Shown here: one piece after another, positions 7,228 to 27,617 of the stretch
How positions within the stretch are numbered: position 1 is the first letter of the stretch
Layout: each line of letters opens with the position of its first letter
DNA from: Planctomycetota bacterium
GTDB taxonomy: Bacteria > Planctomycetota > UBA1135 > UBA2386
Length of the DNA stretch: 64,000 nt
NCBI GenBank assembly: GCA_947501605.1
Contig: CANMWZ010000001.1
Location: 1 to 64,000, forward strand
Direction: 5' to 3'
The notes under the pieces: generated by a model
The model's input: the letters and a program-made list of their open reading frames with translations, nothing else
Told to the model about the DNA's origin: nothing
Databases searched by the model: none
Translations under genes and position numbers: made by a program

Positions 7228-7743
7228 ATGCGCCTTCATCCCGTTCTGCTCCCATTGCTGTTGACCGCCTGTGCTACGCCAGGCGTTCAACTCGTGCCGC
7301 TCGACCGAGACTTCGCGTTCCTCGAGATCGACCTCCGCGGTTGAACTTGAAACGAGGAGCTGCTGGGCCTCCAGCGGCTCTTCGAGGACCGGTTCGGTCC
7401 TACCCCTCAGATCGACCTCGACCAGCAAATCGCACGCGCCCGCGTACCCGAGCCACTGGAGCTCGACTTTCGTGACCTGAGAGACGGCGTCATGCGCAAC
7501 AACGTTGGCGTCGACCGCATCGTCGTGGCGCTGCGCGCGGACTGCGACGACGGTTTCGCGACCGCGATGCAGACGAAGCAACGGTGGGCCCTCGACGGCG
7601 CGGTCGATGCCGCAGCGCCTGGGGCATGGCACTGGTTCGCGGTCGAAGGGCTCGAGCTCGACTCGGAGATCCGGTTGTCGTGGATCGGAGCATCTACTGG
7701 CCCAGGCGATCGCCCCGCAGCGCTCCCACTGCAGCGCCGCTAA
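7228..7743 (+). CDS. Candidate di-selenocysteine (G-U-T-U) lipoprotein with HMA-like fold pattern; in-frame TGA at 7342-7344 and 7348-7350
   Basis: Reads MRLHPVLLPLLLTAC...FLEIDLRG*T*NEELLGLQRLFEDRFG and continues in frame into the track ORF 7492-7743. Lipobox LTAC. 171 codons. SECIS-like hairpin directly downstream of the TGAs. Confidence 0.75.
7354..7383 (+). promoter_or_regulatory. Bacterial SECIS-like hairpin
   Basis: 13-bp stem GAGGAGCTGCTGG/CCAGCGGCTCTTC (2 G-U pairs) with loop GCCT. The loop G is 16 nt after the second TGA and 22 nt after the first. Confidence 0.7.
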
Positions 7744-21212: not shown

Positions 21213-22793
<1,581 letters not shown>

Positions 22794-22926
22794 GGCCGAC
22801 ATCGCAAGGCGCGATCCCAATCCGGGTCGCGCCGCGCGCCGTTCGCAGCGCACGGTCAGAGCATGCGGCCACAGCGCGCCGCGGTGTGCTGCCCACCCGA
22901 CGGTCTCCGAGCTACCCTTTGCTATC

Positions 22927-23271
22927 GTGCCCGACCCCAAAGCACCCGTAGTCCTCTACCAGGGCAGCTTCGCCATCGCACGCGACCTCGAGAAGGTCCT
23001 CATTCGCGGTGAAGTGAAGGCCATTGTCGTTCCGCTCCCCGGCGGTTGAGGCGGTCCCAAGGGATGGCTCGCGGTCGCGAGCCAAGACCGGGAACGCGCC
23101 GAAGCGTTGATCTCGGCCTACGAGGCCTCGTTGCTCGGGCGAGCGGCGCCCACCGCCGCATGCACCGCCGACTTCTCGCAGGCCGTCACCACGTGCCCGG
23201 GCTGCGGCACAGAGTTCGAGACTGCGGGGCGCACTCGTTGCCCCGACTGCGGTCTCAACTTTGGCGGCTGA
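22927..23271 (+). CDS. Candidate selenoprotein: DUF2007-like domain with GG-U-GG loop plus CxxC...CxxC zinc ribbon; in-frame TGA 23047-23049
   Basis: MPDPKAPVVLYQGSFAIARDLEKVLIRGEVKAIVVPLPGG*GGPKGWLAVASQDRERAEALI...CPGCGTEFETAGRTRCPDCGLNFGG, 114 codons. Fills the gap between pckA and the ABC permease. SECIS-like hairpin follows the TGA. Confidence 0.8.
23052..23090 (+). promoter_or_regulatory. Bacterial SECIS-like hairpin
   Basis: Perfect 8-bp stem TGGCTCGC/GCGAGCCA (23065-23084) with loop GGTC starting 23 nt after the TGA; lower stem CGGTC/GACCG. Confidence 0.78.
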
Positions 23272-23304: not shown

Positions 23305-24279
23305 TCAGCGCCGTCGTCGCAACAGCCGGCGCACGCCTTCGTCAGCAGCCGCGCCCAACAGAATCACCGCGCCGACGATCGCGAACTCGAGCTGGTTGCC
23401 GCTGCCGACGATGACGATCGCCATGGCCAGGACCTGCATGAGCGACGAGCCGAGCACGACGCCGAGAATCGTGCCCTCGCCGCCGCGCAGCGCGACCCCG
23501 CCGAGCACCGCTCCAGCGATCGCATACAGCTCGTAGAAGTTGCCAAAACTCGACGCTCCCGCGGAGTTCACGTAGAGCACGAACAGGCAGCCCGCGAGTC
23601 CCGCGAGCAGCGAGCAGACGACGTAGGCGAGGATCGTCAACCGACCCGTCGCCACGCCCGAGAAGCGAGCAGCCTCCTCGTTGCGACCGAGCGCGAACAA
23701 GTGACGGCCCCACACCGTGCGTTGGAAGAACACCGCCGCGAGCACCGCGACGACCAAGAGGATCAGCGCCGACACGGGGAAGCCGAAGCTCGCGGTGATC
23801 GGGATGCGGCCGTTTGCGAGCCACCGCAGGCCCTCGACATCACTGCCGAGCCCCATGGTCTGGTCGTTGGTGAACCAGCGCATGAGGCCGCGGTAGAGCA
23901 ACAGGCCGCACAGCGTCACGACGAACGGCTGCAGCCGTAAGCCGACGATCAAGATGCCGTGCCACAGCCCGATGCCAGCGCACAGCAGCAGAACGAGCGG
24001 CAGCGCCAGCCACGGCGGCAGCGCGCAGTCCTTCAGCAGCCACGGCAGCATGCAGCCTGCGGTGCACACGACGGCTCCAATCGACAAGTCGATGCCGCCA
24101 GTGACGATGACGAATGCGGCCGCGATGCTCAGGATGCCGAACATGCCGACGCGCTGCAGCAGGTTCTGCAGGTTGTAGGCAGTCAAGAACGAGTTGCTGC
24201 CGTCCGCTTGCTGTGCGAGCAGCGTCGTCACGACGAACACCGCAAGCAGGAGACCGGTGATGCCGAGGAGCTTCTTCAT
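23305..24279 (-). CDS. Sugar ABC transporter permease (RbsC family)
   Basis: VIVTGGIDLS, LQPFVVTL, GRNEEAARFSG, YELYAIAGAVLGG. Confidence 0.93.
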   Translation of the reverse strand: MKKLLGITGLLLAVFVVTTLLAQQADGSNSFLTAYNLQNLLQRVGMFGILSIAAAFVIVTGGIDLSIGAVVCTAGCMLPWLLKDCALPPWLALPLVLLLCAGIGLWHGILIVGLRLQPFVVTLCGLLLYRGLMRWFTNDQTMGLGSDVEGLRWLANGRIPITASFGFPVSALILLVVAVLAAVFFQRTVWGRHLFALGRNEEAARFSGVATGRLTILAYVVCSLLAGLAGCLFVLYVNSAGASSFGNFYELYAIAGAVLGGVALRGGEGTILGVVLGSSLMQVLAMAIVIVGSGNQLEFAIVGAVILLGAAADEGVRRLLRRRR

Positions 24280-25784
24280 GCGACGCCCTTGCCGGTAGCG
24301 AGCGTTAGAATCGCGGCTTCGCTCATGCGCTGTCGCGGCAACTCGCCTTCCACGCGGCCTTGGTGCATGACCAGACAACGATCCGCCAACGCCAGGACCT
24401 CGGGCAACTCCGAACTGACGAACAGGACAGCGACCCCGCGGCCGGCAAGCTCGTGCAATCGCGCGTAGATCTCGGCGCGTGCCGCAACGTCGACGCCCCG
24501 CGTCGGCTCGTCGAGCAGGAGCACCCTTGGTTCGGCGGCGAGCCACTTGCCGAGCACGACCTTTTGTTGGTTGCCGCCGGAGAGCACCGCGACCCGCTGT
24601 TCACCGTGCGGCGTTGCGATCGCGAGGTCCGCGATGGCTCGGACACAGAGGTCGCGCTCGTAGGCGCCGTCGACAAAGGTGCCGCGCGCCCGCAACGTCG
24701 CCAGCGACAGGTTCTCGCGCACACTCATCCCGAGCACCAGCCCCTGGAGCTTGCGATCCTCCGGCACCAGCACGAGGCCCGCGCGCACGGCGTCCGCGGG
24801 ATCGTGCCCACCGAGCTGGACGCCACAGCACGTGATCTGACCAGCCACGGCGCGATCGACGCCGAACAAAGCCCGCAGCAATTCCGAGCGCCCCGAACCG
24901 AGCAGGCCGGCGATGCCGACCACTTCGCCGCAACGCAGTTCGAAATCGACGCTGGCGCGCGGGAACGCCCTGGTGCACAGGCCGCGGACGACCAGGGCCA
25001 CTTCGCCCGGAGGGTGCGCCGGGCGTAGCTGCGAGCGCAGTTGGCGCCCAACCATCATCGCAACCATGCGCTCGTGCGTGGCGTCGGCGCCAGCGATCTC
25101 GCCCGTGTGCTCGCCGTCGCGGAGCGCCACGACGCGATCGGCGAGTTCGAGCACTTCGGCCATCCGGTGCGTGATCCAGACGATCGCCGTGCCCTGCGCC
25201 TTCAACTCGCGCACCACCGCGTAGAGGCGCTGCGTCTCGGTGTCGGTGAGGCACGACGTTGGCTCATCCATGATGAGCACCCGGGCGCGACCGTGCAGCG
25301 CCCGCGCAATCTCGAGCAACTGCTGCTGGCCCGGCGCCAGGGAGGACACGAGGCGATGCGGCGAGACCTCGAGGCCAGTCCGAGCCAGAGCCGCAACTGC
25401 TTGCCGGTCCATCGCGCGCTTCCGCAAGAAGGGTCCTCGTCGCAACTCGCGGCCCAGAAACAACGCGCCAGCAACCGTCAGGTTGTCGCAGAGATTGAGT
25501 TCCTGATGGATCAGGGCGATGCCAGCTGCGAGTGCCGCCTTCGGGTCGGCGAAACGCACTTCGCGGCCGAGCAATCGCAGGGATCCTTCGTCGGGTTGGT
25601 GCACGCCTGCCAGCACCTTCATCAGCGTGCTCTTGCCAGCGCCATTCTCGCCGATCAGGGCCACCACCTCGCCAGCGTGCAGTTGCAGCGAGACCGATCG
25701 GAGTGCCTGCACACCGTCGAAGCGCTTGCCGATCGCCACCACCTCTAGCACCGGCGGGGCACCATCCTGTGCGCGACTCGTCAT
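24276..25784 (-). CDS. Sugar ABC transporter ATP-binding protein (RbsA family, two NBDs)
   Basis: GENGAGKSTL, IHQELNL, MDEPT, VPEDRK, LSGGNQQKV, LDEPTRGVDV. Confidence 0.95.
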   Translation of the reverse strand: MTSRAQDGAPPVLEVVAIGKRFDGVQALRSVSLQLHAGEVVALIGENGAGKSTLMKVLAGVHQPDEGSLRLLGREVRFADPKAALAAGIALIHQELNLCDNLTVAGALFLGRELRRGPFLRKRAMDRQAVAALARTGLEVSPHRLVSSLAPGQQQLLEIARALHGRARVLIMDEPTSCLTDTETQRLYAVVRELKAQGTAIVWITHRMAEVLELADRVVALRDGEHTGEIAGADATHERMVAMMVGRQLRSQLRPAHPPGEVALVVRGLCTRAFPRASVDFELRCGEVVGIAGLLGSGRSELLRALFGVDRAVAGQITCCGVQLGGHDPADAVRAGLVLVPEDRKLQGLVLGMSVRENLSLATLRARGTFVDGAYERDLCVRAIADLAIATPHGEQRVAVLSGGNQQKVVLGKWLAAEPRVLLLDEPTRGVDVAARAEIYARLHELAGRGVAVLFVSSELPEVLALADRCLVMHQGRVEGELPRQRMSEAAILTLATGKGVA

Positions 25785-25794
25785 CGGGTGGCGG

Positions 25795-26820
25795 TCACTT
25801 CTTGCCCGTCTTCTGCTTCAGGTCTTGCCAGAACGCAGCGACGTTGTCTTTGGTGATCTTGCGCGCCGGCACGTTCAAGAAGCCCCCTGGCGGCAGCAGA
25901 GCCGCGCGCTTGTGCGCATCGGGCTCGTTCAGCAGTTTGCCCAACAACTCGACCGACGCGCGACCGTACTCATAGGGGTTCTGCACCACGGTGCCATGCA
26001 CGTGTCCGTCGACGATGCCTTGCAACGTCTCACTGTTCTCGTCAAAGGCAACGACCTTGACCGTGCCGAGCTTCGCTGCCGACCGAACCGACTCGAGCAA
26101 CAACGGCGGCTCGTACTCGAACAGTCCGACGAGGCAGGCGATATCGCTCCACTTGCCGAGCGCATCCTGCGCGATCGCCTTGCACTTCTGCCGATCGAAC
26201 TGATCGGTGTAGCTGGCGCGAATCTCGTACTTGCTGCCCTTCAGCACCGCGTCCTGCGGATCGAAGCGCGTGCTGTCCATCGAGCGATCGAGCAGTTCGT
26301 CGATCAGGCCTTGGCGACGTCGCCGCGCGTTGTCCTGATCCAACGTGCCGACCACGACCACGATCGCACCGCCGTTCTGCAGCGCCTCCTTGACCAACTG
26401 CCCGCACATGCGCCCGGCCTCGTAGTTGTCGACTCCGACGTAGCACAGACGCTTGCTCTTCGGGGCATCGGAGTCGTGCGTGATGAGGATCGCCTTGTCG
26501 GCAATGCGATCGAGCAACTCCGTCATGTTCTCGGGGTCCTTGGGGCTGACGGCGATCCCGACGGCGCCGCGACCGAGGGCGTCCTCTAGGATACGCGTCT
26601 GCTCCTCAGCCGTCCCGTTCGGCGGCATGTGCACGGACACCTCGACGCCGGCTGGACCCTTGGCCGCCTCGACACCGAAGTTCGCGATGGTCCAGAACTC
26701 GGCGACGCAGTTGGTGATGAACGCGATCTTGGGCGCGCCCTTTGTCGACGACGCCTGCTCGCGGCCGCAAGCAGGCAGCCCTGCGAATGCGAACGTGAAC
26801 GCGATGAGAATCGTGCGCAT
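25795..26820 (-). CDS. Sugar ABC transporter substrate-binding lipoprotein
   Basis: Lipobox LPAC; THDSDAP, YVGVDNYEAG, VVQNPYEYG (periplasmic binding protein type I). Confidence 0.9.
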   Translation of the reverse strand: MRTILIAFTFAFAGLPACGREQASSTKGAPKIAFITNCVAEFWTIANFGVEAAKGPAGVEVSVHMPPNGTAEEQTRILEDALGRGAVGIAVSPKDPENMTELLDRIADKAILITHDSDAPKSKRLCYVGVDNYEAGRMCGQLVKEALQNGGAIVVVVGTLDQDNARRRRQGLIDELLDRSMDSTRFDPQDAVLKGSKYEIRASYTDQFDRQKCKAIAQDALGKWSDIACLVGLFEYEPPLLLESVRSAAKLGTVKVVAFDENSETLQGIVDGHVHGTVVQNPYEYGRASVELLGKLLNEPDAHKRAALLPPGGFLNVPARKITKDNVAAFWQDLKQKTGKK

Positions 26821-26825
26821 GGGAT

Positions 26826-27617
26826 TCAGGTGACGGTCATGCCGCCATTGACGGGAATGTCTTGGCCAGTCAGGAACGCAGCCGCATCGCTGCACAAGAA
26901 GGCGACGAGGCCGCCAACGTCCGCGGGTACGCCCCAGCGCCGCAGTGGAATCATGGCCTTGTAGGCGTCCTTGTCCGCTTGCGCGTCATGCTCGTGGCGC
27001 TCGACCGGGATCCAACCCGGCGACACCATGTTGACCGTGATGCTCCACTGCGCGAGCTCCATCGCCATGCTGCGCGTCCACCCGGTCTGGGCGCCCTTCG
27101 CCGCCACGTAGGCACTGAAGTTGGGGACGCCGCGACGGAAGACTTCACTGCCAATGTTGACGATGCGGCCAAAGCGCTGCTGCTTCATGCGCGGCAACAG
27201 CGCCCGCGTCAGCAGGAAGGGGCTCTTGACGAAGAAGTCGAGCATCGACTGATAGAACGCCCAGTCGTACTGCTCGATCGGCTTCAACGGCTGCGCCGGT
27301 GTTGCATTGACGATCAGCAGATCGATCGGTCCGAGCGACTTGGCGACGCGCGCACAGAGATCACCGACCTCGCCCTCGTCGGTGACGTCGCCGCAGAACA
27401 GATCGCACTCGATGCCGGCGGCCCGCAGCTCCTTCCAGGTAGCTTCGGCCTTCTCCTTGCCGTGCTTGTAGTTGAGCGCGACACGGGCACCCTGGGCGCC
27501 GAGCGTGCGCGCCATCGCCTTGCCGAGGCCCTTGCTGGAGCCGGTGACGAGCGCGGTGTGGCCATCGAGGCGCAGTGACGGAAGCTCCGACGTAGAACCA
27601 GATTGGGGATGAGCCAT
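26826..27617 (-). CDS. SDR family NAD(P)-dependent oxidoreductase
   Basis: TGSSKGLG, GRIVNIGS, YVAAK (YxxxK), VNMVSPG, TGQDIPVNGG. Confidence 0.93.
   Translation of the reverse strand: MAHPQSGSTSELPSLRLDGHTALVTGSSKGLGKAMARTLGAQGARVALNYKHGKEKAEATWKELRAAGIECDLFCGDVTDEGEVGDLCARVAKSLGPIDLLIVNATPAQPLKPIEQYDWAFYQSMLDFFVKSPFLLTRALLPRMKQQRFGRIVNIGSEVFRRGVPNFSAYVAAKGAQTGWTRSMAMELAQWSITVNMVSPGWIPVERHEHDAQADKDAYKAMIPLRRWGVPADVGGLVAFLCSDAAAFLTGQDIPVNGGMTVT

Follow-up and report, generated by a model that had tools for sequence, protein, structure and literature searches.

The closest described relative of the gene reported here is protein DG, a selenoprotein predicted by deep-Sep in 2025 (PMC12013277, available text); a 2026 review gives its motif as GUxG (PMC13188914, available text). 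The same portion of that review models the bacterial SECIS element as a stem-loop lying 16-37 nt after the UGA codon, with a G at the start of its loop. Three further systems bear on what follows. In engineered E. coli, the native tRNA-Sec was shown to wobble onto UGG and to insert selenocysteine (Sec) there in a SECIS-dependent manner; the UGG construct yielded a mixture of Sec and Trp products without truncation, and good yields needed overexpressed sel genes (PMC3834832, in the part of the text that is accessible). Sense codons recoded to Sec in nature have been described where tRNA-Sec carries a variant anticodon (Mukai et al. 2016, by way of the accessible portions of PMC8124441 and PMC10778597). 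Finally, DUF3343 proteins have been proposed to traffic selenium or sulfur (PMC5322559, available text).

Here we describe a planctomycete gene that can be compared with each of these systems. The window, a stretch of 64,000 nt from contig CANMWZ010000001.1 of a Planctomycetota bacterium, contains at 22927..23271 on the forward strand a gene for a 114-residue protein whose codon 41 is an in-frame UGA. Our overall reading, to which we give a probability of about 0.62, is that the gene encodes a shortened version of protein DG, a selenoprotein of two domains that resides in the cytoplasm and has presumed selenol chemistry, and that genes of a large sister clade flip between UGA and UGG at the Sec codon, most likely because UGG too is read there by the Sec-tRNA through wobble.

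A first-pass annotation, made from the letters of the DNA, had pointed to a 114-codon frame interrupted by TGA at codon 41 in the context PLPGG*GGPKGW, followed by a perfect 8-bp stem with a GGTC loop and ending in CPGC-x11-CPDC. Checking against the sequence found all of these features where they had been placed, and the interval is confirmed as a genuine gene with a GTG start and a TGA stop (23269-23271, +) by its coding score and its match to a family profile. Among the frames of 22927-23271 only this one has a positive coding score, which is weak in the 3′ half of the gene (0.07), and the same frame upstream of the GTG scores negative. The UGA at codon 41 (23047..23049, +) lies in the motif G-U-G-G-P. 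It is spanned without a difference by RNA-library contigs from two runs (X11, X13), from which strand, start and level are not readable; thus the TGA is not an assembly error. The runs that contain the stretch come from lake water and freshwater sediment. Synthesis of the full-length protein would require Sec insertion at UGA41, failing which a 40-residue peptide would be released.

The best NCBIfam match of the translated protein is NF049953, 'zinc ribbon-containing (seleno)protein DG', with 54 bits and an E-value of 1.8e-14 over profile positions 60-172; the cut-off of that family is 130 bits, so that the window protein falls below it (54 bits, and 46.6 bits in the genome search). Homology extends over the entire 114 residues with a profile probability of 99.9 %. 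The published DG sequence has G-U-G-G-P in the same register (PMC12013277, available text), both proteins end in a four-Cys ribbon, DG being itself a predicted protein, and Sec41 aligns with a Cys that is invariant in 21 rows of full-length DG proteins. The first-pass annotation had placed a Cys at this loop position in deltaproteobacterial relatives, and those 21 rows bear this out. Unlike full-length DG, the window protein has neither the N-terminal four-Cys ribbon (profile positions 1-59) nor the loop Cys four residues before Sec. The DG homology rules out a new selenoprotein family; as judged by sequence comparison, the window gene is a new, shorter variant of the recently predicted DG family that stays below the family cut-off.

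Matches to the window protein were found in 35 of 61 related genomes. With a 41-row alignment as query, 74 of the 91 genomes of the window's taxonomic family were matched, 54 of them with one in-frame TGA, and phylum-wide the alignment matched 45 of 401 genomes. Filtering 202 profile-matched loci by score and coverage left 166, which comprised 127 distinct genes; eight of these, all with Cys in the loop, were dropped for want of the L-A/V-V anchor, leaving 119. Among these 119 distinct genes the codon at the Sec site is TGA in 92, TGG in 25, TGC in one and CAT in one. Such TGG alleles set the planctomycete family apart from DG as published, since the available deep-Sep text on DG makes no mention of TGG (PMC12013277). 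The first-pass annotation had counted non-Cys residues at this position in homologues as evidence against Sec. They do occur (25 Trp and 1 His among 119) and leave Sec unrefuted, because the Trp genes keep the SECIS. When DG genes with a TGA were sought across the phylum to which genome G127 belongs, 19 of 301 genomes matched, none with an internal stop. A word-based protein search with the read-through protein returned 18 candidates, none significant, and a metagenome scan with a Trp-allele protein gave 151 pattern matches, none of which was confirmed. Loci L363-L376, from a planctomycete family (f41), have a Cys-rich loop C-x-x-G-K-C-G-C and no TGA.

The UGA codon is followed by a predicted hairpin that spans about 23050-23100. 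Its apical stem-loop (23065..23084, +) is made of eight pairs between the arms 23065-23072 and 23077-23084, and its loop, GGTC at 23073-23076, begins 23 nt past the UGA. As noticed at first pass, GGUC is the loop of the E. coli type of SECIS (PMC3834832, available text), and both the distance and the G in the loop fit the 16-37 nt model. Spacing between UGA and loop is 20 nt in most genes and 23 nt in 7 of 92 TGA genes, the window's included. In isolation the hairpin stands modestly above chance (z -2.54; 2 of 200 shuffles are equally good). The genome holds 32 sites at which a TGA is followed by a GGTC-loop stem of at least 6 pairs; three of them have 8-pair stems, and of those three only the window's has long open frames on both sides. 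We accept the hairpin as a SECIS because of its conservation, visible as frozen codons, and not for its fold score alone.

This conservation is seen both in the codons and in the pairing. The hairpin encodes the peptide L-A-V-A, and the codons CTC, GCG, GTC and GCG are used in 92, 89, 92 and 91 of the 92 TGA genes, the background use of those L/A/V codons elsewhere in the genes being 0.42-0.52; in the window's own genome, 10 of 174 LAVA peptides use the hairpin's codon string. Distant TGA genes have double-sided substitutions that preserve the pairing. Pairing was scored in 40 rows picked for diversity from 134, with two distant compensatory TGA genes included, and was kept in 97.9 % of cells. 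Conversely, the Cys homologues L331 and L332 encode the identical peptide in other codons and form no hairpin, and inside the family the stem is broken in the one TGC gene (L063) and in the one CAT (His) gene. A stem of this kind is also an inverted repeat, and a near-palindrome could serve as an operator at the level of DNA. That reading is extremely improbable: all 40 of the aligned rows have the identical 4-base loop, one stem pair alternates between U-A and U-G, three pairs are altered on both sides, and the genome holds just 3 copies of the 14-base core, of which the two outside this gene lie in LAVA-coding frames.

The genome is equipped to use such an RNA element. Genes for SelA, SelB, tRNA-Sec (selC) and SelD each score above cut-off, selD itself carrying an in-frame TGA, and this complete set together with the SECIS upholds the selenoprotein status proposed at first pass. 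The anticodons are TCA for tRNA-Sec and CCA for tRNA-Trp. TGA terminates 1846 of 2350 confidently coding ORFs; UGA is thus the main stop, and its read-through must be site-specific. Genomes with the TGG allele have the machinery as well: selA and selB were found in 5 of 5 tested, selD in 9 of 9 (with TGA in 8, the ninth match being without its N-terminus), and tRNA-Sec in 7 of 9, with the anticodon TCA in the 6 that were read. A survey of tRNA-Sec over 35 genomes gave 31 matches, four genomes being without one, and 30 anticodons were read (G061 left out). All 30 are TCA, the 6 from TGG genomes among them, which rules out a variant tRNA-Sec anticodon in the TGG genomes. Two side observations concern SelD. 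At locus L121 (G025:C14) SelD has Cys (TGT) at the Sec site, while the DG-family gene of the same genome keeps TGA. The SelD SECIS of this lineage (loci L018 and L122-L150) has a different frozen loop, 5 nt long and starting C-G-G, so that the same SelB reads at least two types of SECIS loop.

The interchange of TGA and TGG within one alignment column is the usual signature of a code in which UGA means Trp. UGA41 might accordingly be read as Trp, either through such a code or through hairpin-stimulated read-through by tRNA-Trp, and the two codons would then be synonyms. This is very improbable here. UGA ends most genes, including pckA and the window's gene itself, and tRNA-Trp has the anticodon CCA. 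SelD keeps TGA at its Sec/Cys site in the TGG genomes tested, and so does a lipoprotein gene with two UGAs. DG proteins and L063 have Cys at the position aligned with codon 41. In TGG genes, moreover, an enhancer of read-through would be pointless, yet the hairpin is frozen there. Sec insertion at codon 41 is, on these grounds of sequence conservation and gene content, very likely.

The protein is predicted to have two domains. Residues 1-71 (22927..23139, +) form a beta-alpha-beta-beta-alpha domain resembling DUF2007 and DUF3343, as indicated by an AlphaFold2 model, fold searches and profile comparison. In the model, in which U is read as C, this domain is predicted with confidence and the Sec loop lies between strands 2 and 3; a flexible linker leads to the ribbon. 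The pLDDT is 83 (53 in the linker) and the pTM 0.55, and the orientation of the domains is uncertain. The C-terminal ribbon CPGC-x11-CPDC (23194..23250, +) is recognized by Cys conservation and weak Pfam zinc-ribbon matches; its cysteines C90, C93, C105 and C108, as first annotated, are invariant in 41 rows, and its metal is presumably zinc, possibly iron. A sequence search of solved structures gave just ribbon-level matches (E at least 0.1), and Foldseek against the PDB gave no match at E ≤0.001. The best fold matches are ring-building domains of PrgK/EscJ (Z about 9), followed by 2hfv (Z 6.5, rmsd 3.3, 67 residues aligned), which we take to be a DUF2007 protein; the PII-like proteins PstA and GlnK are weak Foldseek matches (E 0.06-0.3). 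A role in a secretion ring was considered from the PrgK/EscJ match and rejected, as the match reflects a shared small fold and nothing else points there.

The first-pass annotation had likened the N-terminus to DUF2007 (PF09413). The topology fits, and the full-length relative P0040 passes the Pfam cut-off (27.8 against 25.7 bits), but the window protein itself has no PF09413 match. DUF3343 (PF11823) is likewise a small alpha/beta domain, and its invariant loop Cys may correspond to Sec41: the family profile compared with PF11823 members aligned the two with a probability of 86.6 % (E 4.5e-6), a moderate match whose register is favoured by reading U as C. The differences are that the window protein has no Pfam match to DUF3343 and only 2 of 41 family members reach E <0.01, that DUF3343 has no ribbon, and that DUF3343 genes often lie near Sec lyase or YedF genes, none of which was seen beside this gene.

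The chemistry that we propose centres on the Sec loop. Relatives have one to three Cys at the Sec-loop position, and among the 92 TGA genes a second Cys is found in the loop in 21, in the linker in 40, in both in none and in neither in 31. That it sits in loop or linker and never in both suggests an Se-S pair with Sec, for which Cys79 in the linker (23161..23163, +) is the candidate resolving partner here. Exposed on a Gly/Pro loop, Sec41 would be a reactive selenol, either accepting sulfur, selenium or a soft metal and passing it on or responding to oxidation, and it would probably close to an Se-S bond with the second Cys, Cys79 in the window protein. The ribbon would serve as a structural or partner-binding module. 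Taken together, these features suggest that the protein may be a small carrier or sensor that uses its selenol to handle sulfur, selenium or a soft metal. In many distant relatives (for example P0008, P0012, P0013 and P0019-P0021) the loop is devoid of Cys, so the fold also works without Sec or thiol chemistry.

The gene probably has its own promoter. A -10-like hexamer TAnnnT (22913..22918, +) lies 8 nt before the start codon, and in 76 of 116 genes the same hexamer precedes an in-frame start by 5-10 nt, compared with 3 of 313 control positions. This spacing points to an mRNA that is probably leaderless or nearly so, and it supports the GTG start; a consensus promoter scan found nothing. The first-pass annotation had placed the gene downstream of pckA (PF01293), which indeed ends at 22793. 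Adjacency is thus real at this locus, but pckA stands beside the gene in just 8 of 119 loci (flanks 1.5-3 kb), which rules out an operon with pckA as a general rule. A sugar-type ABC transporter (binding protein, ATPase and permease; 23305-26895, -) is convergent with the gene, and such a transporter is beside it in 10 of 119 loci. Neighbours at about 25 loci were varied (ECF sigma factors, M20 peptidases, sulfatases and unannotated large proteins), and no conserved neighbourhood suggests a link with pathways of sulfur, selenium or metals.

The unexpected result in this family is the codon switch. Within the window's taxonomic family the site is TGG in 18 of 74 matched genomes, and the hairpin is kept in 25 of 25 distinct TGG genes, with a stem of 6-8 pairs and a spacing of 20 nt. 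In a tree from which the Sec codon and the codons of the hairpin had been left out, the 25 TGG genes sit interleaved with 39 TGA genes in a clade of 64 tips. Monophyly of TGG is rejected (p-AU 0.0017), and at least five switches between TGA and TGG are needed; the history is either one gain with four returns to TGA or 11 separate gains. Transfer between lineages may have contributed to this pattern. The switch does not extend to the other selenoproteins checked. A second candidate in the window, a lipoprotein gene at 7228-7743 (+) with two TGAs one codon apart, keeps both in 6 of the 6 TGG genomes that have it. Its matches were found in 29 of 91 family genomes, and the matched region always contains 2 or 3 TGAs. 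A lineage-wide change to UGG is ruled out for the two others checked, SelD and this lipoprotein, which keep TGA in TGG genomes; the switch is therefore gene-specific among the three families checked.

Some further features of the site were noted. The base before the Sec codon is T in 52 of 92 TGA genes, and TGG genes have C before and G after the codon in 25 of 25; the residue that follows the Sec site in TGG genes is Glu in 19 of 25, a codon-context effect. Protein P0006 belongs to another branch of the family; its Sec site is occupied by Trp, the same peptide, WLAVAS, comes next, and the protein is possibly, by its sequence, the product of a further independent UGG allele. In the window's own genome, the combination of a TGG codon and a GGTC hairpin is not enriched (7 of 12453) and occurs as with control codons.

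A hairpin behind a Trp codon could be a neutral leftover of very recent and repeated mutation from TGA to TGG, or of gene conversion or transfer with TGA alleles as the source, codon bias adding to the effect. The tree gives this some footing: the maximal all-TGG groups number 11, of which 7 are single tips, several inner branches are supported at only 45-80, and genera g53 and g58 each have both TGG and TGA alleles. The hairpin codons, however, have not drifted. On a TGG-only tree the four hairpin codons show 0 synonymous changes, compared with a mean of 4.9 at 15 L/A/V control columns, none of which is fixed. The same holds within all-TGG clades of more than one tip, of which there are four (18 genes with 2.11 substitutions per site); there the hairpin codons again show 0 changes and the controls 2.7 each, with 1 of 15 fixed (Poisson 2e-5; empirical bound 2e-4). 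For such comparisons the L/A/V columns make the appropriate control, since some Gly codons are fixed in TGG genes too (fixed columns make up 3 of 18 P/T/G controls). The median nucleotide identity among TGG genes is 72 %, which likewise speaks against a recent origin. We regard a neutral leftover as quite improbable.

A frozen SECIS behind UGG, by contrast, invites comparison with the E. coli wobble system. Both have UGG upstream of a GGUC-loop SECIS and a normal UCA tRNA-Sec (PMC3834832, available text). The difference is that a recombinant construct was used there, whereas the alleles here are natural, are spread over nearly a quarter of the matched genomes of the taxonomic family and appear to be under selection, as judged from evidence at the level of the gene. 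Mukai-type recoding (Mukai et al. 2016, by way of PMC8124441 and PMC10778597, available text) likewise lets a sense codon, together with a SECIS, encode Sec in natural genes, but there the anticodon matches the new codon, while here TCA stays and the other selenoproteins keep TGA. No natural UGG-plus-SECIS gene was found in the open-access literature searched, and the BSepDB main text, in its available part, makes no mention of UGG-plus-SECIS terms.

We consider it somewhat better than an even bet that these natural alleles use UGG as a Sec codon, with SelB acting on the frozen SECIS, ordinary UCA tRNA-Sec reading by wobble, and selection maintaining partial insertion. Action of SelB at UGG is deduced from the SECIS, which otherwise has no known use behind a Trp codon. 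In the TGG clade, Sec-tRNA(UCA) bound to SelB would also read UGG by wobble, and the UGG allele would give a selenium-dependent mixture of Sec and Trp proteins, always full length and never truncated. Lineages would move to and fro between this allele and an all-or-none UGA allele.

The distribution of the partner Cys counts against UGG wobble and for another reading, in which the window's gene is an ordinary Sec protein while the TGG relatives make the Trp protein only and keep the hairpin for a SelB pause or decoy, for selenium-dependent control of translation or for mRNA stability. A second Cys in loop or linker is present in 4 of 25 TGG genes and in 26 of 39 TGA genes of the same clade, kin that are not independent, and its scarcity suggests that the Trp form relies less on Sec chemistry. 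Many distant relatives lack any loop thiol, which shows that the protein can dispense with the Sec site. EF-Tu with Trp-tRNA competes for UGG, a further point for a Trp-only product, and the dependence of good UGG yields in E. coli on overexpressed sel genes also weighs against wobble. Two observations stand on the other side. Four TGA groups are nested among the TGG genes, and a return from TGG to TGA implies a Sec-competent SECIS, as the change would otherwise be a nonsense mutation. The stem is lost in the Cys and His versions, both in the two genes inside the family and in L331 and L332, although a general mRNA element should be of equal benefit to them. A Trp-only product is on balance unlikely, though far less so than the other alternatives weighed here, and insertion of Sec at UGG is the reading that we prefer.

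Other genes of these bacteria may be selenoproteins as well. In genome G000, in-frame TGA sites at C32 (-) 8515, C1 (-) 343603, C5 (+) 35864, C19 (-) 54980 and C7 (-) 58886 have coding sequence on both sides, a hairpin behind, and U-x-x-C or C-x-x-U motifs, which we take to be thioredoxin-like and SelW-like, respectively. By these sequence features the five are further selenoprotein candidates. The genome-wide scan for Sec candidates missed the window's gene at its threshold, and this listing of the selenoproteome is incomplete.

With the present analysis the DG selenoprotein family reaches into Planctomycetota, where its members are shorter and are split in two by gene callers. If the UGG alleles do insert Sec, a form of wobble between codon and anticodon so far known just from engineered E. 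coli would operate in nature, and selenoproteomes would be undercounted, as UGG selenoproteins are invisible to searches based on stop codons or on variant tRNA-Sec. Lineages would then also be able to gain or lose Sec in evolution without passing through a nonsense stage. The idea that UGG can be read as Sec is testable, since close kin offer matched natural alleles with TGA, TGG and TGC.
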